A stretch of DNA of 64,000 nt from Curvularia clavata (Eukaryota). A model generated the notes under the pieces. That model saw only the letters and a program-made list of their open reading frames with translations. It was not told the DNA's origin and did no database searches. This document shows, one piece after another, positions 1 to 64,000 of this stretch (within the stretch, counting starts at the first letter, position 1; each line of letters starts with the position of its first letter). The DNA lies in the NCBI GenBank assembly GCA_023920165.1, contig CP089278.1:2914001-2978000 (forward strand). The letters run 5' to 3'. Position numbers and translations under genes: made by a program.

Positions 1-561
1 CTGGCAACTTCGTTGGTGGAAAGGGATGGAACCCAGGAAATGGCCGGTATGATGCGAATAGTATCTGATGATGAGATTCTCGTTAACCTGATTTCTTAGT
101 ACCATCAACTACGGTGGAGCTTTCAATCCTCAGGGTAACGGATACCTCGCTGTGTACGGATGGACCCGCAACCCTCTTGTGGAGTACTACGTAATTGAAT
201 CCTACGGCACCTATAACCCCAGCAGTGGAGCTCAGTACAAGGGCACCTTCCAGACCGATGGTGGTAACTACGACGTTGCTGTCTCCACTCGTTACAACCA
301 GCCCTCCATCGATGGAACCAGGACCTTCAACCAGTACTGGTAAGCAGTCTCGGCACCTATCTCAGTTATGATACAGGTACTAATCATGATTTCAGGTCTG
401 TCCGCACCCAGAAGCGTGTAGGCGGAAGCGTGAACATGCAGAACCATTTCAATGCTTGGGCTCGTTACGGTCTTAACTTGGGTCAGCACTACTACCAGAT
501 TGTCGCTACCGAAGGCTACCAGTCATCCGGAAGCTCCGAGATCTACGTGCAGACCAAGTAA
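1..561 (+). CDS. GH11 endo-1,4-beta-xylanase, 5'-truncated by the window edge
   Basis: Motifs [24 protein letters not shown] (nucleophile) and IVATEGY (acid/base). Introns 47-99 and 340-395 (GT..AG) restore the frame; TAA at 559-561. Confidence 0.95.
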
Positions 562-4315: not shown

Positions 4316-7300
4316 ATGCGATTGTGGATACCAGCATCATTTGGACTGCTGGCTGGCTGTCTTGCCAGCACTACCGAGATACTACCAGGTGCTTCTACTC
4401 TTTGTCAAGGTAACTGTGAGAAGCTTCCGATTCCGGCATGCGACAAAAATAGCGCAAAGCGACACGTCGGCTACTTTGAAGCGTCGAACATTCGCCGTCG
4501 TCCTTGCGAGCAAATCTGGCCTGGTCGCTTGAACACCACTGGTTTTACACACGTCACGCTCGGCTTCGCAGTCTTCGACCCCAAGACTTTCACCGTTGCG
4601 ATGGAGCGCCACGATGACAAAGAGGTAGAGGTATACCGGCAATTTCTTCGCCTTCCGGACAACGTCCGTAAGGGCCTTGTAAGTACTCTCCAGAAACATT
4701 GGATACAAAGGAGCGTCTAACGAAATCTAAGGCTATCGGTGGATGGAACATGTCCAATGAAGGACCAACACACACCGCCTGGTCTGATATGTCGAGTACG
4801 AAGGCAAATCGCAGGGCTTTTATCGACTCACTCAAGCATTTTCTTGATACCTGGAAGTTCAGTGGCATCGAGATACACTGGGAGTGGCCTGGCGCATGGA
4901 ATCGCGGCGGCAATCCAACTGATGCCCAAAATCAAGTTGACCTGATTCACGAACTGCGCGACTATTTTGGAAAAGATTTTGGCATTTCGGTCGTCGTGCC
5001 GGCCCAGCATCAGTATCTGAAAAACATGAATCTACTGAAGATGCAAGATGCAGTGGATTGGTTTACCATACTCACGTATGATCTCCATGGACCTTGGGAC
5101 GCATTCATACCCGATCTAGGACCTAAGATCAAGCCTCATACTGACCTTGCCGAAATCGACGCTGCGCTCAACCTCCTTTCGTCCGCTCAGCTCGACCCAG
5201 CCAAGATCAATATGGGTATTGCCAATTACGGTCGCGGCTTCACGGTAGCTGATCAGAGCTGCAAATATTACGGCTGCAAGTTCACTGGTCCGAGTAAAGC
5301 AGGTACCTGCACAAAGGAAGAAGGTCTTCTTAGCGCGTGTGAGATACGCAGAATTATTAAAGAGAAGAATCTTGAACCTCAGATCATCCAGGGTGGTGCC
5401 GGTGTCAAGGCAATCTCTTGGGATGATCAGTGGATTGGGTACGACGACGACGATACTCTCGGGCTGAAACTCGAGCTGGCCAACAAACGCTGTCTTGGGG
5501 GTACCTCACTATGGTCCCTCGAGCACAACCACTGTGACGCACATGTTGACGTGCCATCTACACCTGGCCCAGTTGTACCTGCCCCTCCTGTATCCGAACA
5601 TTCTGCCCAACCTACCCCTGTGTCACCCACTACACCTATTCAAGTTTCGATCGCCCCTCAACCACCAAACAGCTCGAATGGCCCAAAACTTCCATCCCAT
5701 GTTTCATCTGGACCTATGGGCTCTCTGCCTTCAAATCCTCCAATACCTACGTCATCCATTCAAGGATCTGCTGCTGCATCTTCCGTGCAGGGTTCAACGC
5801 CATCACTTCCCTCCCCACCGAACACTCAGCCCTTATTTCAAAGTAGTCCAAGCTCCGTCGATTGGACGGGAACTGCGGTTCCTTCTCTTGGACGTTCCGG
5901 CCTACCCTCTTCCAGATCCTCGAGCGGTCAAGAGTCTTCAGTCGCTGGCTCGAGCGGCTTCACGTCTGCTGTGTCGGGATCTGGCACGGATCATAGTTTG
6001 TCCACTACTTCAATGTTGGCTGTGCCTATAATCCCAGGAGTGTCGAGCTGGCCAATTCAATCATCCGTCGCCCCTACCTCCAATGTCAGCTCCTCCCCCA
6101 ATCCTTCTTTTCTACTTACTTCTGCAACACTCTCTATCAGCCAGAGTAGCTCCACTATTGGTGCATCAAGTGCGCAGGTTTCCATTCCACTGGGAAGCTC
6201 TGCAGGTCCCTCCATCACAGCTGTTGTTCCAATTATTCCGATCAATCCTAGTTTGGCCTCACCAACAACAACGAACACTCAGGGTAGTTGGCAAACTGGA
6301 TCCACCATTCATGGAGGTTTCTCGACAGCTGTGCCAAAAACATCAGCAAGCTCTCCAAATAATCCGAGTCAGACTTTGTCTTCCAGCAGCGGTCCAATAC
6401 TCCAGTCTTCCGGCACTGCAATTCCTAGTTCTCAGTCAAATCCAGTTGAAAGCACTAGTCTCCCACCAGCTGCCAGTCTTATCCGCAGCTCCACTAAACC
6501 GTCTCCTACGGCCACTGGATGTCCTAATGAGTGTCGAAATCTTGACTGGTGCGTAATCTTCTGTGTAGGATGGAAGTTCCCCCGGCCCGACTACGTGCAA
6601 CCACCTCACGAATGTCTACTACCTGAGAACGCTGGGTGGTGTCGAACATGGTGGTGGGGTATCCCACCTGATAAAGACCATAATGGTGGTGACCCTGATT
6701 CGCACTCGGATAGTGATCCAGAATGCAAGCCGAATGACTGCGTTTCGGATTGTGTCAAGTGGCGCATTGCCACCTTCTTTATCTTCAAGCGGCCTGTTTG
6801 CCCATGCGTCCCCAAGAAGTGCGACAAGGACGGCGAGAGCGACAGTCCTAGTGACAGCGATAGAGACGACCCCAAAGTCAAGCCTTCACCAACATCTCGC
6901 CCGAAGGGGAAGAGGCCTGAGTGCAGGCTCTTTGGCTGTGGTTGTGGATGGATGGGTCTTGACTTTGGCCCCGGCTGTCCTGGATTGGAGTTCGAGATTC
7001 CCAGCCCATGTGGTCTCTTCGGTTGCAACCCTTGCGTTTTTTTCGGATGCCCTGGTACCCAACCAGAAGGTATCGTCGGCTACGATGGATATTGCCCAGG
7101 AGGAGGGTGTGAACCCTGTCCAACAGAGCTTTGCAGTCGCCCAGGTTGCACTATTCCCGGAGGTTGTGGCCCAAAGCCAGGTCCTGCACCAACGAAGCCA
7201 CCAAATCGCCCGGACCCAGAAGCCTGCGATGATACAAAATGGACTGTCATTACCGAGCGTTTCGTGTGGTGCACCGAAGGGTTCAATGTGTCTGCACTTC

Positions 7301-8226
7301 CATCAAGTCTACGGGGAACTTCGTCGACAATGATCTCCTCCTTATGTCTACCGATGATCGATGCGACGGTGACCATGTGTGGAGGTGCAATTCCTGGCTT
7401 CGACACTACTACAACGGCGACGGGTACAAACACACTTACCTCGGATGGACCAGCATGTACCCGAGCGCCGCTGTCCTTGGACGATGATGAGGGAGACAAC
7501 AACCCTGGCGATCCATTGAGGACATCCAGAACATTCGCCGGCAACACAACTGTTATGACTTCAAGCAAGGCGTCTTTCTCATCTCCATCGACAGCGAAGA
7601 CAACACCCTCATCTTCTTCAATATCTAGTACAACAGCTCCACCTCCTACGACATCCAAGACAACGCCCCCACCTCCTTCAACAACCACGACATCCTTCGC
7701 CCAACCCTTACCAAGTCTTGGTCCCATGGACAAATATGGACACTGGAGAGTAGCACTTTCTCAGTACATGTTTAACGATTACTCTGAAGTTGGTTGGAAA
7801 CTCTACGACCCCAATGGCAATCTTGCTGGCGAGCATAACGTTCATGGTAATCGAATGAAAGAGATGAAGGACTACATTGAGTCTATGAACCGTCCTATTC
7901 AACACATGATGCCTTTTGGAGTTGATATGACGGTTTTGGAACCCCTCGATCTCCACAAATGTAGGGTGAACTTTGAAATCAAGAAATCGATGCCAGAGTG
8001 CAACTACTCCAAAGAGGTTGGTTGCAGGCTCTATTTCACCACTGAATCTTTCACAGAGGAGATGCCCTTCGTAGTTTCAGTTTGCCAAGCGGCCTGCAGT
8101 GCAAAGGGAAAGAAGCCAGTTTTGGTTCCCTCGGACCTATGGTGCCAGGATCTAAATGATGCTGACTGGGAGCCCATGTCGAACGGTTGGAAACGTCAAT
8201 TTGAATGCGGGTGGAAGGGATTTTGA
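4316..8226 (+). CDS. Secreted GH18 chitinase-like protein with Ser/Pro/Thr linker, Cys-rich region and unknown C-terminal domain
   Basis: Signal-peptide-like N-terminus. Intron 4679-4731 joins KGL|AIGGW in frame. GH18 motifs LTYDLHGPWD, ANYGRGF, WDDQWIGYDD and LGGTSLWSL. Catalytic motif is degenerate (FSGIEIHWE). Confidence 0.88.
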
Positions 8227-9920: not shown

Positions 9921-10523
9921 ATGGCTTTAATTCGAATATTTCAGCTTGGTCTGCGAAAGGCGGTGGTCCCTGGTATAAGGGTGCAGACGGTGCAATCTAT
10001 GGTGCAACGGAGGTACGGAAGCGTATGACAACATGAACACACTTTGTGCTACTCTCTTCTTGGAATCAGAATTGCCGCTGATGATGTTAATAGACTTGCA
10101 ACATCTCAAGCCGACGCCGCTAAGATTCTCGCCAAACAGCGTATTAACCGCCCCGTCTCCCCACATCTCACTATCTACAAGCCGCAGATTACCTCGATTG
10201 CATCAGGACTCAACCGTATTACTGGAGTTACCCTTTCTGCTGCTCTCTACCTCTTTGGTTTCGCATACCTCGCTGCGCCGTATACGGGATGGCATTTGGA
10301 GGCACAGGCTATGGTCGCCACGGTGGCCGCATGGCCTGCGGCCGTCAAGATTGGCCTGAAGGGCTTCTTCGCATTCCCTTTCTTCTTCCATAGCTTCAAT
10401 GGACTTCGGCATTTGGCGTGGGACCTTGGAATCGGATTCAAGAACGCGCATGTTATCAAGACTGGGTGGGCGGCTGTGGGTATGACTGTCGTAGCATCTT
10501 TGTACTACCTTGTTCCTACTTAG
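9921..10523 (+). CDS. SDH3: Succinate dehydrogenase cytochrome b560 subunit (SdhC), possibly a divergent paralog
   Basis: Mitochondrial-presequence-like exon 9921-10012; intron 10013-10093 (alternative in-frame AG at 10069). Motifs NRPVSPHLTIYKPQIT, LNRITG and FHSFNGLRHLAWD. Confidence 0.93.
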
Positions 10524-11753
10524 AAACTACCAAGTCAGGTCAAGGCACTGAGAGGAGCTAGGATATTGAAACCTGATTTGCATGTACAGTGTTTGCTATA
10601 ACACAACCCCATAAGGCTTGTCAGGCTGATTGAAAACCCAGCCCTTGCACAGTTCCATGGGCAATAGAGCGGGACTTGACAACAAACCAGGCTAGTTCAA
10701 TGTGGGAAAGCTTCCGCTTCATTTTTACAGGTCACAATGAGCTGAAGTCAGGCGAGCTAAGTATGTGGAAGCCGATCCTCCATAACGCTGTATCCAAGAA
10801 GCCCATTTTCATCTGGCGACAAAGGTGACGGGAAGCTAGTGACGCAGATTCTGGGCTTCACTAACATCAAGCCATGAATTTTATTTTTGGCATTCTGACG
10901 TAAACCTCTCAACCATATACCCTCAGTCACGTGAATTAGCTTACCGTGTTATATACCACATGAATCGTGCACTAACGTCGTGAGATTACCAGGATCACTC
11001 GATTAGGGTGGCAAAGTACCGAGCCAGGGGAGCGCCGTTGCATCTGCCACAGGACTGATAAGGACCTATCAGCATGTAGTAAGGTTCTAAGGGTCTGATT
11101 CTGTATTATTTCCACTCTGGTTGTGATGGGACGAGTATTTGAGCTATAATAAGAGAGTCGTGCTATGCGAAAAAAAAACAAGGCCCTTGTTTTGAAGGCA
11201 TGAAGGCGACGATGAGGTTGGTAACTTTACTAGATGTATTGCCAGGATGGTAGAGGAGAATGACTAGTATCTGACCCGAAACAGCATAGCACAGTAGGAT
11301 GAATGTAGACAGAAGTGCACTACTCTGAAAGCTAGGTACCTATCATTTTCTTGCTGCACAGTACTTCTCGGCATGTGGTAAGTGTCGTTAGTTTTGCTAA
11401 CGACATGTCTGGAATCCATGCTGCTCTAGCGTTTGATTGCGTCTTCTCGGCCTTACTAAGTTTTGAAGGTGCGCAAATTTGTCTCTTCTTCGTCGTTGAT
11501 ATGTACTTACCTCTTTCACCATATGAAGTTTAGTGGTCAATGGGACCCTCTGGTTAGTTGTGGAAAATATCCAGTCGAAACGCATCACGTGACGTATTTG
11601 CCTAGCCGGCAGCCTGAACGTTTCGTCATCCCCATGTCGCGAAACGGCACCAAACCAATGGATGTAATCCAACAATTGATCTCAGCCAGTCATATACTTT
11701 ACGTTTATGCAATGCCATCCTTCGTCCCCACCCAAACAGGCAGACAGCCTCCT

Positions 11754-11808
11754 CACGTGCCATCACGTGCTCATACTGCTGCCTGTCCTCCCTCTCCTCC
11801 TATATAAA
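11754..11808 (+). promoter_or_regulatory. Putative promoter of the U2-like snRNA: paired CACGTG boxes and TATA box
   Basis: CACGTG at 11754-11759 and 11764-11769 (a third at 11586-11591). TATATAAA at 11801-11808, about 33 nt upstream of the inferred RNA 5' end. Confidence 0.6.
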
Positions 11809-11840
11809 CCTTCTTTTCCTCGCCTCTCTTCCAATTCCTC

Positions 11841-12031
11841 AGCTCGCTCTTTGCCTCAATGGCTTTGATCTGATGTAGTATCTGTTCTTCCGCAGGGTAA
11901 CACCTCGGATTTATTCCACATATGTTACTCCTATTTTTGAACTCCCGCTCCCCGCAGTCACGGTGTACTTGCTATATCTGGCGCATGGGGAGCAATGTGC
12001 CCGTCCTACTGCACTTCCTGGATGCGTGCGC
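11841..12031 (+). ncRNA. U2: U2 spliceosomal snRNA, divergent variant
   Basis: CTCTTTGCC..TGGCT..GATC..TGTAGTATCTGTTCTT core, with branch-recognition GTAGTA at 11875-11880. Stem IIa with loop GTAACA and its complement TGTTAC (11923-11928); Sm site ATTTTTG (11933-11939); stem III GCTCCCC/GGGGAGC; stem-loop IV with 13-nt loop TACTGCACTTCCT. Ends are approximate. Confidence 0.9.
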
Positions 12032-12242
12032 GAAAACTCTTTTTCATTGATGCTGGTGGTGCTCTGGTGCCGCTGGGTTGAGGAAGAAGGAATAAGGGAC
12101 AAAGAAGATGGGCGCCTAAGGGACAGCGGAGAGGAGTGAAAAAAGTGAATAGTACGCGATTGAAATATGCCCGAAAAATCCAAGGTACACTCATAGCCAC
12201 CATGGTTAATCATCCTGTCTCAGCCGGATACATGCAAAACCG

Positions 12243-15200
12243 TCAAGCATCGCCTTTGCTCTCCCATTCGAGGATAAACGTTGAGAAAACCTCGATGCGC
12301 ACACTTTCCACATAGTTAACCCATCCCCGGTACAATGCCATTGGAACAACCCCAATCCTGTCCCCCGGCTCAACCAAGCCCAACCATGACTGCCGCCTCT
12401 CGGGTGGAATGTGTTTCAAAATGACGAAGTGTTCTCGCGTCTCGAAACAAGCATGGACGTTGTGTATGATGCCTTCGCCACCCTTCCCAATATCTCGTAA
12501 TGAACCATCTTGCCTCTGCACGATGACGTTGAAAAAAGTCATTGATCCGCCATAAGTACCATGCTGATTCTTGTAGTCACTGAAACCTTGGTCGTGACTA
12601 CGAATGATGATGTTAATCTCACGAACAGGATGGCTGTGGGCACCCTGGATGGGGTCACCAAGAAGGTAGGGAGCTTGCTTCTTAGCTTCCTCTTGGTCAT
12701 ATTGTTTTGCTTCGCAACGCTCAGAAGCCGATTTGATCCAGTATTCTGCTTTGTCAAGAATCTTTCGAGCAACACTTGCGGGTAGGCGCGAACGCCCCGA
12801 ACCGCCCCGCAACATGGTATATACGCGGTACTGATCTTCCTTGTTGCGCGGAAAGCGGGCAGCTTGTTTTTCAACGACTTTGTATGACGCAATTGTGGTA
12901 TCAGTCTGACCTGGGCTTTCCTGGGTAGGCTGTATTTACCAGAGGCTGCTTTCTGTAGAGCATCCAGCGTCGAGAAGTACTTTGGTCCCTTCTCTGAAAC
13001 TACCCTCAATAGCTATCATCAATGGCGTTCTCCCCAAACCATCTTCGGTGTCCAGTTGAGAACGCTCATGCTTTGCGATCAATACTTTCATTGCGCCAAG
13101 ATTCCGGGATCTGGTAGCGTCATGAAGGGGTAGTGATCCGCTATTTGATCGGAGATTGCAATCTGCTCCCTTTTCAATCAGAAGTTCAGTCAACGTAGTT
13201 GAGACTTGGGGCGACATGATGCTAGCGGATAGATGTAACGCTCTTCGACCGTCACGGCCTATAGCATTTGGATCAGCCCCTGCCTCAAGTAGTTTCTTAA
13301 CAATAAGTTGGCTTGGTGACTGCCGCAGCGCAACAATGAGAGGGTGGTTGAATTTCGAATGCTCTTTGACTCTGAGGCTATCGCCGCCGTTGGGATTTGC
13401 TCCGTACGCCAAAAGGAGGTCAATGAGCTGATCAGACTTTGCGACCACTGCGCTGGTGAGGAGAGGCTTGCGACCCGGATACCCATCGATATGTTTCGAG
13501 GCCCCCCGTTTTAACATTTCTTCAACAAGTTCTAGTACATAAGGATTGTTTGGTTGAGGAATCCTACAGGCTAGTGTAATAGGAGCAGGAGCTTCACCCG
13601 TGCTTCTTGGGCCCAGAGTCGGATCAGCATCGTGCTTGAGGAGAAACCAAGCCATTTCAAAAGGACCTTCTCCTTTGATATCCATATTATCCTCATTGGA
13701 GATCGCCCAACTAAGTGGAGTAGTTCCCGCCGAGCCACGAGCATTGACATCCGCGCCGTGAGCTAACAAAATCCTAGCCGAGGCCATGGATTCACCCCGA
13801 GCTGAAAGATGGAGTGGAGTTTGGCCATCGACATTTGGTTCATCTGGTTTTGCGCCTTTCTCAAGTTCATTCTTTACGTATTCGTTGAAGTCAAAGAACG
13901 CCGCTAGATGAAGAGCTGGAAGGAAATCATTGCCGTCGCCTGAAGTCACGAATCTACGCCATCTGCTAAAGCGGCCATGGCTTGGACCTCGGAGATGAGA
14001 TAGCCACCGAATAACTACTGGTGATCTTTTCAACTTCTTGTTGCATGTTTTCGTTATGACCCGAATATCACTACGGGCGTTGCTGCTCCGCCAGATGCCA
14101 CGGTCGCCGCGTAGTCGAAGGAACACTTGAAGCCAACGGATAGTCCATGCTTCTGACGAACAAAAGCGCTCGATAGTGGTTTGCAATATTTGTGGCATAA
14201 CTGAAGAGTAAGCGTGATTCCACAAGTTTAACGTCGCGTACTTCATGAGTGGATATCTTTTCAAGTAATCTTGAAATCTCGACCTGAGAGCAGCACGGGG
14301 CTCGTTCGTCTCCGTAAGTTGAAAAGGGGGCGATTCGATGTCGTCAGAAGATAAATATGTAAAACAGATCCTTGCAAGCTCGGTCTCGATCTCTGCCTCC
14401 TTCTGGTTGACAGGAGCTTCACTTTCACGTTCGGCACGCCCGAGAAGAAACTCTTTGACAGAGGCATGTGCTAATATGACAACTTCTCTGTTTTGCTGCT
14501 GAGAGAAGCGTACCAGCGGTCCGCAATACTTGCTTATTGTCTGTCTCAGCACAGCGTCCTCGGCAATGATGGCCTTTCCATGCCTAAGTGCGCCACTATT
14601 CACTCGAAGCATCGTAGCTATTTCCGAAAGAGAAAGGGCTCTGCGAGAACAAGCTACCCAGTTCAACACACACAGAGAGTTGTTGATCATCTCTTTTGAC
14701 TTCCCCTGGTGGATGTTGTTGAGAATTTTGCTGTAGAGATCATGGAGACCCGTTGGCATCTCCTCCGTCTTGGATAAGAAGTCGTCATCGAACATGCAGT
14801 CACTATCCATTAGGTATGCGATCATGTTTGTGGCCCATTGGAACATTCCATGGCATTCGGCGTGTAGTCTCCGGACAATTTCTCGTCTCGTCTCTTCGTC
14901 GGATACACCGAGCTGTTTGGCTTCTTCGATTATGAGCTTCTCGAGATCGGCCGTGGTGTCGAATTCGGATATTCTGATGCGAGCAAGTCCAAAGGGCTCG
15001 GGTACCCGAGACAAGCCTTTTTGGATATCTTCGAGCTCACGGCTGAGAACAATAACGTTAGAGAGCGAAGCCAAAGATGTCAACAGCATGCAAAGTCGCC
15101 TTCTTGTATCTACGGTGCATTCGTCCAGGCCGTCTAGAAGTATCACTGCGTCCCGTTTCTCGCACATCTGGCCAAGGCAGTCTTTCATGTCAGTCTCGGT

Positions 15201-16079
15201 TGGCTCACCACCTTTGTAGTAAGCTTGTGATAGCAACTCGGCATCTTCTGGAAACTGGTTGAGAAGCTGCCAGCAAAGTGTGGCCATGAGACCCCTCACA
15301 TCGTCTCGTTGGGCAGTCCCATCACAGAAAAAGTAAGCTACTGTCCGCTTGTCTTGGTTGAGCTTCTGGATAAGCTTTGCAGCCAAGTTCGTCTTTCCAG
15401 CTCCTGGGATACCAGAAATTCACAACAATGGGGAATTCCTTCTAGGAACGTGGTCATACCAATCAACGTACTCTTGCTTTACAAACAACCACTCGCATGT
15501 TCCCGAGAGGAGGTTGGCAACGGTGGTATTGTATGTGTCTTCAATTGCAGAGATCGGCCTTAACCATTCTTTAATGCTACGCAGCAGCCCTTGTTCGTGG
15601 GTTTGTTGATTTCTGGTGAGCCTTTTTTCAACTGCCTCCCGAGTTGTTTGCAAACGGCCAAGGCTGAACAGTGTAAGATCCACATGAAGGCCGTCCAATG
15701 GGATTGCAACCGTCTCTCGCAACTCCTTGACCTTCTCGGTAAAATACTGGCAATATTTGATCTTCTTGTAAGGGCGGGTGACGATGTCTTTGAGATTTCT
15801 CTCTCCGGGTCTTGTCAGGTCCATGTATTCTGCCATTTTGTCTTTCTTTTCGAGAAGAGGTCCTTGGATTGCTTCGATCTTTTTCCGAACGCTGTCAGGC
15901 ACAAGACCATCATCGATAGCATTGAGGACACTCCCTAATGTATCTATGAGGTTGTCCAGGAATGCCGTGTCTTCTTTGACCTGTTTGGGTGCACCATGAG
16001 CATCTGACAAGGCTTTGCCAACTTTATAAAGAAACTGTGCAGCCAAAACAACATCTCCAGGTGAAAAGCCAAACTCCAT
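12243..16079 (-). pseudogene. Fungal NLR-like gene (helical N-terminal domain - NACHT - ankyrin repeats - C-terminal domain) with two in-frame stops
   Basis: Three ORFs lie in one frame. TGA at 15420-15422 falls in LL*ISGIPGAGKT (Walker A); Walker B ILLDGLDEC and several ankyrin repeats (GQTPLHLSA, GTTPLSWA, GRTPLMIA) follow. TAA at 12936-12938 is followed by an open in-frame domain (IIRSHDQGFS). Confidence 0.85.
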
Positions 16080-63401: not shown

Positions 63402-64000
63402 ATGGTCAAGACCTCCGTCCTCAACGATGCGCTTAACGCTATCAACAACGCCGAGAAGGCCGGCAAGCGCCAGGTCCTGATCCGTCCTTCCTCCAAGGTC
63501 ATTGTCAAGTTCCTCCGCGTCATGCAGAAGCACGGTACGTCAAATTTTTTTTCATTCGCAGACGACTCGATTTTCGGCGCCGAACGACGTTGTGGTCACG
63601 CAAGTGTACCTCCATCCGAATCCGCATCCACAACCCATTCCCTGCACCCTTTTCGGGCTGATAACTAGTTAATGATCTCGATTCCCACGATCATTGACCT
63701 TTAAGTGTCCGATATATTGACTGCGGAGGACTTACACGTCTTCGGAACCGTTTCATGACGTCTGATGTTTATTTCGCCGCAACATACACTGACAATTTTG
63801 TTCAGGCTACATTGGCGAGTTCGAGGAGGTCGACGACCACCGCAACGGCAAGATTGTCATCCAGCTCATCGGCCGTATCAACAAGACCGGTGTCATCTCT
63901 CCCCGCTACAACGTCCAGCTCCGCGACATGGAGAAGTGGGTCGTCAAGCTGCTTCCCTCTCGTCAGTTCGGTTTCATCGTCCTGACCACCTCCGCTGGTA
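63402..64000 (+). CDS. RPS22: 40S ribosomal protein S22 (uS8), 3'-truncated by the window edge
   Basis: [53 protein letters not shown]; intron 63535-63805. Confidence 0.98.
63653..63787 (+). ncRNA. snR44: Intronic H/ACA snoRNA, snR44-like
   Basis: Two hairpins with ACA at 63782-63784. The hairpin 1 pocket GATAACT / TTTAA is complementary to 18S ...UUAAA-UC-AGUUAUC. Yeast snR44 is likewise hosted in an RPS22B intron. The H box is imperfect. Confidence 0.85.

Follow-up and report, generated by a model that had tools for sequence, protein, structure and literature searches.

What kind of U2 is encoded at positions 11841-12039 on the plus strand of the window, the 64-kb stretch of DNA analysed here? 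The locus holds a U2 spliceosomal snRNA gene that keeps the architecture of its family and has altered letters in the core that pairs with U6 and folds into the BSL (branchpoint-interacting stem-loop). It may be the ordinary U2 of its lineage, a specialised paralog working beside a canonical U2, or a copy in decay, and the altered core may or may not matter for the choice of branch sites.

Gene anatomy and the altered core

A search with the Rfam U2 model (RF00004), as proposed in the earlier note, matched 11841-12039 (+) over model positions 1-192 with a score of 61.5 bits (E 1e-09) against a gathering score of 46 bits; the alignment spans the full model and provides the 5′ end of the gene. 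The end given earlier, 12031, lies approximately at the last stem IV pair (12032) and the model continues to 12039, the mature 3′ end of the RNA probably being located within 12032-12039. The score is low for a fungal U2, with five canonical-type loci reaching 122-142 bits.

All main U2 modules are present in order, as had been claimed from the letters alone, and each is readable both in the sequence and in the RF00004 alignment. Stem I, identified from sequence and model alignment, pairs GCC (11853-11855) with GGC (11861-11863) around a 5-nt loop that reads UCAAU, compared with UUUU in canonical U2. The claimed retention of both U6-pairing strands holds, with GCU of helix Ib at 11862-11864 and GAUC of helix Ia at 11867-11870 unaltered. 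The branch-point recognition sequence GUAGUA (11875-11880) is also unaltered; it is single-stranded, lies 3′ of stem I and aligns with invariant consensus letters of RF00004. Stem IIa (11889-11909) is formed by UCCG-c-AG with CUCGGA and carries GUAACA (11897-11902) in its loop, and the loop complement UGUUAC, the stem IIc partner, can be read directly from the sequence at 11923-11928, 21 nt 3′ of the loop. Stem IIb, previously described as much reduced, is nearly missing, the IIb pairs of the model being deleted in the alignment. An Sm site, AUUUUUG (11933-11939), found by sequence and model alignment, is followed by stem-loop III (11948-11993), whose outer eight pairs join 11948-11955 with 11986-11993, and by stem-loop IV (11996-12032), whose loop (12008-12018) has 11 nt by the model and 13 nt when the closing U.U is included. 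Unconstrained folding of the entire U2 RNA gave z = -2.47, in a fold that does not reproduce the U2 structure in detail. By every structural criterion tested, the RNA is a member of the U2 family.

The neighbouring genes place the locus in a fungal genome. Upstream lie a gene for a GH18 protein (4699-8226) and one for a succinate dehydrogenase cytochrome b subunit (approximately 10095-10520), the best named relatives of the latter being Pleosporales proteins (Phaeosphaeriaceae, 82-86% identity; Alternaria, 80%; Ophiobolus, 78%), and for this reason the lineage is taken to be Pleosporales-like Dothideomycetes. Downstream on the minus strand, a 190-aa open reading frame with no Pfam family (12243-12815) starts roughly 200 nt beyond the 3′ end of U2, next to a gene (12936-15386) whose NLR-like product combines an NPHP3_N NTPase domain with ankyrin repeats, a type typical of fungal non-self recognition. 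Rfam searches of the rest of the 64-kb window at E up to 1 returned no U6, U1, U4 or U5 and no second U2, and a tRNA scan of the window returned none. An snR44-like box H/ACA snoRNA (RF01262) is located at 63651-63787 (+), with 47.3 bits where the gathering score is 33; it has large internal deletions and is far shorter than the model, which has 211 positions.

Four core bases of the U2 gene set it apart from the Rfam consensus and from canonical loci. Helix Ia and the branch-point recognition sequence are joined by a linker that forms the BSL's 5′ strand, and here UGA stands in place of AAG at 11871-11873 (+), as the earlier note had stated. An additional change, not stressed there, is A>U at 11866 (+), which the model alignment places at the second base of the bulge separating the helix Ib strand GCU from the helix Ia strand GAUC; it abolishes the outermost pair of an extended stem I, leaving a non-standard pair in the RF00004 alignment. 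With window positions equal to 11842 plus the human U2 number, the variant reads A24U, A29U, A30G and G31A. The canonical AAG linker and bulge A, which are absent here, are conserved traits of the family and not conditions of membership.

How invariant these positions are depends on where one looks. Pattern matches in contaminating eukaryote DNA of metagenome-assembled genome (MAG) contigs, nearly all from non-fungal tandem U2 arrays and in many cases copies from few contigs, served as a baseline for core invariance: none of 90 carries the variant core or is fungal-like, and among the 86 with a U2-like GCUA(A/U)GAUC context the linker is AAG in 85 and AUG in one. The description of the core as near-invariant is thus borne out outside fungi; within fungi it is weaker, as judged from 33 metagenome loci described below. 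As a separate observation, loci L034-L113 comprise canonical U2 genes in tandem, dozens of copies at intervals of about 1.4-2.5 kb, in MAG contigs labelled as bacterial, e.g., Hormoscilla, Anaerolineae and Metamycoplasmataceae, and these arrays are most likely misbinned DNA of host eukaryotes.

Compared with canonical U2 (RF00004, the budding-yeast-like locus L017 and the canonical-type loci L020, L025 and L032), the window gene has the same module order and identity, sharing GCU, GAUC, GUAGUA, the fungal GUAACA loop with its IIc complement, the Sm site and stem-loops III and IV. It is unlike them in the bulge U, the UGA linker, the 5-nt loop I, the near-absent stem IIb and the model score (61.5 vs 122-142 bits). 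For Neurospora crassa, a member of the Pezizomycotina whose U2 has the same general role, the available part of Liu et al. 2009 (PMC2780460) reports primer extension stops at G32 that map a methylated A31; this U2 has the canonical A-G where the window reads G-A, indicating that the change is not general to filamentous ascomycetes. In Aspergillus fumigatus, likewise a filamentous ascomycete but of a different fungal class, the accessible portion of Joechl et al. 2008 (PMC2377427) describes two predicted loci, U2-1 and U2-2, as less conserved than expected and partly alignable to the Rfam U2; the comparison is one of descriptions only, and the two loci imply that multi-copy U2 exists in filamentous ascomycetes. 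No description of the variant was found in the openly accessible literature searched, and the altered core is apparently an undescribed, lineage-specific rewrite of near-invariant U2 letters.

Pairing and stability of the branchpoint-interacting stem-loop

The human BSL, as given in the available text of PMC13019295, is formed in the register G25-C45, A26-U44, U27.U43, C28-G42, A29-U41, A30.C40, G31-U39 and U32-A38, with G25-C28 also serving as helix Ia with U6. In this register the variant turns the A30.C40 mismatch into G-C and G31.U39 into A-U, and loses A29-U41 to a U.U opposition (11871 with 11883). Hand pairing in the earlier note had proposed A-U and G-C pairs gained or strengthened near the loop, and that part stands; what it had passed over is that one A-U pair becomes U.U, so that the number of pairs is unchanged. 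Variant and canonical BSL each have six pairs and two internal mismatches, the difference being that in the variant the internal mismatch is shifted one step away from the loop and the three loop-adjacent pairs form a continuous Watson-Crick helix.

Nearest-neighbour energies calculated in this register are -0.5 kcal/mol for the whole variant BSL stem vs +1.2 kcal/mol for the canonical loci, and +0.7 vs +3.8 kcal/mol for the loop-proximal sub-helix. Partition-function folding of the first ~50 nt gives loop-proximal pair probabilities of 0.16-0.17 in the window and in L012, a metagenome locus with the same core, 0.01 in L013, another such locus, and at most 0.03 in the canonical loci. As modelled, the thermodynamic shift of the BSL is real in register and is not uniform across sequence contexts.

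Two of the four substitutions have been made singly in human U2. In the portion of PMC13019295 available, mutants M1 (A30G) and M5 (A29U) carry the same substitutions as window positions 11872 and 11871, M1 converting A.C into G-C and M5 breaking the A-U pair below it, and each caused small, non-significant losses of reporter splicing. The window combines both with G31A and A24U in a naturally fixed state, whereas the human mutants are single and were assayed in an orthogonal reporter system. By analogy with these results, the variant U2 would be fully competent. The same source, as far as its accessible text goes, proposes the loop-adjacent part of the BSL as a controller of branch-point recognition (PMC13019295), and a stronger BSL could, by the same analogy, demand somewhat better branch-site pairing in order to open.

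The BSL shares its strand with helix Ia. We take the base at 11871 to be the one that would form the last helix Ia pair in yeast, and on this assumption helix Ia has lost one pair in the variant, provided that U6 carries no matching change. The earlier note had proposed that GAUCU could, conversely, lengthen the pairing with U6. A change on the U6 side, U6-A53U, is described as one that 'extends' helix Ia in the available part of PMC4081067.

Constraint in close and distant relatives

Four sequencing runs, assembled as Logan contigs, were compared with window positions 11641-12240 at a likeness of at least 80%, contigs of this kind being uninformative on expression level. In two of these runs, X3 and X7, both from close relatives, all 600 nt lie in one contig each with the gene at the same locus. 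The listed differences from the window over the 600 nt number 20 in X3 and 15 in X7, and their union comprises 28 distinct variable places, just three of which fall inside the gene, which is 199 nt long and whose first 107 nt (11841-11947) contain no variable place. Avoidance of the gene gives a Fisher p of 0.0075 when both runs are taken together, and of 0.028 and 0.41 when X3 and X7, respectively, are taken singly. The three in-gene changes appear from their positions to be benign: 11991 A>G in the relatives turns a stem III U-A pair into U.G, 12009 C>U in X7 restores the consensus letter of loop IV, and the third, at 12025, affects a bulge base.

A soil metatranscriptome library contains a 160-nt contig that covers 11867-12013 with 95-99% likeness (six differences and one insertion) before turning into adapter-like letters. 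The contig is evidence for the presence in RNA of a variant-type gene from a relative, in a library in which DNA carry-over is possible. The contig likely carries UGA at 11871-11873, the place of one of the six differences being unlisted.

More distant relatives were sought in metagenome contigs with a pattern consisting of UGUAGUAUCUGUUCUU, a gap of 5-8 nt and GUAACA, which returned 33 loci. The seven letters that precede UGUAGUA read GAUCAAG in 17 of these, GAUCCAG in four, GAUCAUG in three, GAUUAAG in two and GAUCUGA in four; one further locus has an extra A, and two are not U2. These two, L015 and L023, match the pattern without stem I or GAUC upstream and represent either chance matches or U2-derived fragments. 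The fungal U2 pattern had no matches in viral contigs, where a more general pattern had three, none of them U2. Scores of the RF00004 model, which were obtained for some of the 33 loci, are 70.6 bits for L013, 126.9 for L007, 122.2 for L005 and 89.1 for L029. The last of these (260-466, minus strand) is a divergent fungal-type U2 with a bulge U, a C>U change within GAUC, a greatly enlarged stem I loop and the canonical AAG linker.

The four GAUCUGA loci reduce to two distinct sequences, L012 and L013, the latter recovered identically from three samples (L004, L013 and L030). The variant core GGCUUUGAUCUGA followed by UGUAGUA is identical in all four, and all four have the bulge U; the U at 11866 is thereby found in L012 and L013, and L029 has it too. 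L012 is near to the window, with a diverged promoter region, and its contig is cut 52 nt into the match. L013 is more distant, its identity to the window being 88% through the end of stem IIa and 57% over the remaining RNA, with 53-57% for the flanking DNA. Helix pairs of the two were compared on Rfam-model alignments, since a MAFFT alignment used with RNAalifold was misaligned in the 3′ half and is meaningful for the stem I and IIa pairs only. Among 33 helix pairs, 18 are identical, two have one-sided changes, eight have changed on both sides and still pair, and five are non-standard in at least one of the two RNAs. The two-sided changes comprise one in stem IIa (C-G in the window, U-A in L013), three in stem III and four in stem IV. 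A core that is fixed while the rest of the RNA is rebuilt by compensatory change excludes a pseudogene for practical purposes.

TATA and CACGTG boxes upstream of the gene had been noted from the sequence, and they can now be located on the plus strand: two CACGTG E-boxes at 11754-11759 and 11764-11769, at -87 and -77 from the gene start, and a TATA box, TATATAAA, at 11801-11808, beginning at -40. L013 has CACGTG at -73 and TATAAA at -39, and L012 has CACGTG at -74, compared with -77 in the window. Directly 3′ of the gene, the 14-mer CUUUUUCAUUGAUG (12039-12052, +) begins at +199 and recurs without change at +204 in L013 (positions 572-585 of that contig), the likeness of the two downstream flanks being 56.5% elsewhere; as judged from its position and conservation, this box is a candidate signal for snRNA 3′-end formation.

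Two loci with a nearly canonical core, L007 and L028, have the promoter layout of the window, with paired AUCACGUG-type (ATCACGTG) boxes, a GCTGCCTG element and a TATA box, along with a similar 5′ leader. Their core reads GAUCAUG and keeps the bulge A, and they serve as examples of a related 'normal' gene. A layout common to U2 genes of these fungi (the window, L007, L028, L012 and L013) can be described as a single (AT)CACGTG E-box or a pair of them between about -75 and -120, followed by a GCTGCCTG-like element and a TATA box at about -40; it is found with variant-core and near-canonical-core genes alike.

The proposal that selection, and not decay, has shaped the gene is supported by these results, namely the three of 28 variable places within the gene, the eight of 33 pairs changed in a compensatory manner, the variant core in two further environmental genes and the conserved promoter and 3′ elements.

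Ordinary U2 or specialised paralog

The reading that we consider probable is that this gene is the ordinary, and probably the only, U2 of a Pleosporales-like fungus. Run X1, whose 32.3 Mb of contigs were read whole and hold the whole locus, contains one contig only at a likeness of at least 80%, a test that would miss a paralog less than 80% alike, or one whose likeness is confined to its first ~60 nt; the window may itself come from X1, which is for that reason not independent support. Among the 33 metagenome loci, none pairs the stem IIa signature of the clade (YCGCAGG, GUAACA, CCUCGR) with a canonical core, and the three samples that contain the L013-type organism, in one case on a 178-kb contig, gave no other match to the pattern, which requires GUAACA 5-8 nt after UCUGUUCUU and would let a canonical paralog with another IIa loop escape.

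The earlier note had favoured a different explanation, a specialised U2 paralog coexisting with a canonical U2 and forming an alternative snRNP with different branch-site proofreading. We regard such a paralog as unlikely, even though the changed bases, lying in the BSL and beside helix Ia, could alter branch-site choice, the variant is old and selected as would be expected of a useful paralog, and canonical-type fungal loci reach about twice its RF00004 score. The two predicted U2 loci of A. fumigatus, which in the available text differ in their levels of conservation (PMC2377427), also speak for it. It is opposed by the single U2-like contig in X1, by the lack, among the 33 loci, of a canonical core bearing the clade signature or occurring in the L013-type samples, and by the intact state of every part that a housekeeping U2 needs. 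Other fungal lineages, moreover, have single changes at this linker in U2 genes that resemble ordinary ones (GAUCCAG in four loci, GAUCAUG in three and GAUUAAG in two). The alternative snRNP is thus not supported and is most likely wrong, and the preferred reading coincides with the outcome that the earlier note had itself named as contrary to its proposal, an only and ordinary U2 of the lineage. A related version, in which two functional U2 types exist in this fungus and its relatives, a canonical one and an old variant with a re-registered, loop-strengthened BSL that acts in a second U2 snRNP, seems to us improbable; were it true, the variant snRNP would select or proofread a distinct class of branch sites.

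A decaying or silent pseudogene would account for the low Rfam score (61.5 bits), the missing stem IIb and the four altered core bases, but is very improbable indeed given that substitutions in relatives avoid the gene, that eight pairs have changed in a compensatory manner relative to L013, that the core is identical in three distinct sequences, that promoter and 3′ box are conserved and that an RNA-library contig covers the gene. Neutral drift is a more serious possibility, though one we do not favour: here the gene is the U2 of its lineage and the four changes have drifted at tolerated positions, leaving branch-site choice unaffected. The small, non-significant effects of single A30G and A29U in human U2, as reported in the accessible part of PMC13019295, agree with drift, as do the variation of positions 30 and 31 (yeast numbering) in other fungal loci and the modest stabilisation of the BSL (-0.5 vs +1.2 kcal/mol), which is absent in the 5′ context of L013. 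Against it, the four changes occur as a set, unaltered, in lineages with 3′ halves only 57% alike, which argues for constraint on the new state.

With the gene as the ordinary U2 of its lineage, transcription would start from the E-box and TATA promoter and end at the conserved 3′ box, yielding an RNA that retains the branch-site letters GUAGUA, both U6-pairing strands (GCU and GAUC), the Sm site, the IIa/IIc switch and the two 3′ stem-loops, III and IV. In this lineage four bases, near-invariant among most eukaryotes, have been exchanged and the new letters then kept, and the stronger loop-proximal BSL may alter how strictly branch sites are chosen.

Letters of the BSL are too conserved in the Rfam U2 seed for covariation to be seen, according to the available part of Rivas 2021 (PMC8250186). 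The clade described here gives natural variation in this element, by one-sided changes that improve or remove pairs and not by true covariation, and amounts to a natural experiment in which A29U and A30G are combined, the loop-adjacent BSL pairs are strengthened and the new state is fixed. For annotation of the clade, U2 scores just ~15 bits over the Rfam threshold are to be expected. If this is the only U2 of the lineage, a shifted stringency of branch-site choice becomes a testable question, as does the co-evolution of U6 and of the Prp5/SF3b partners. In that case the guide RNA for the 2′-O-methylated A, which is A31 in Neurospora in the accessible part of PMC2780460, may also have co-evolved with the rewritten core, and this too would be testable.
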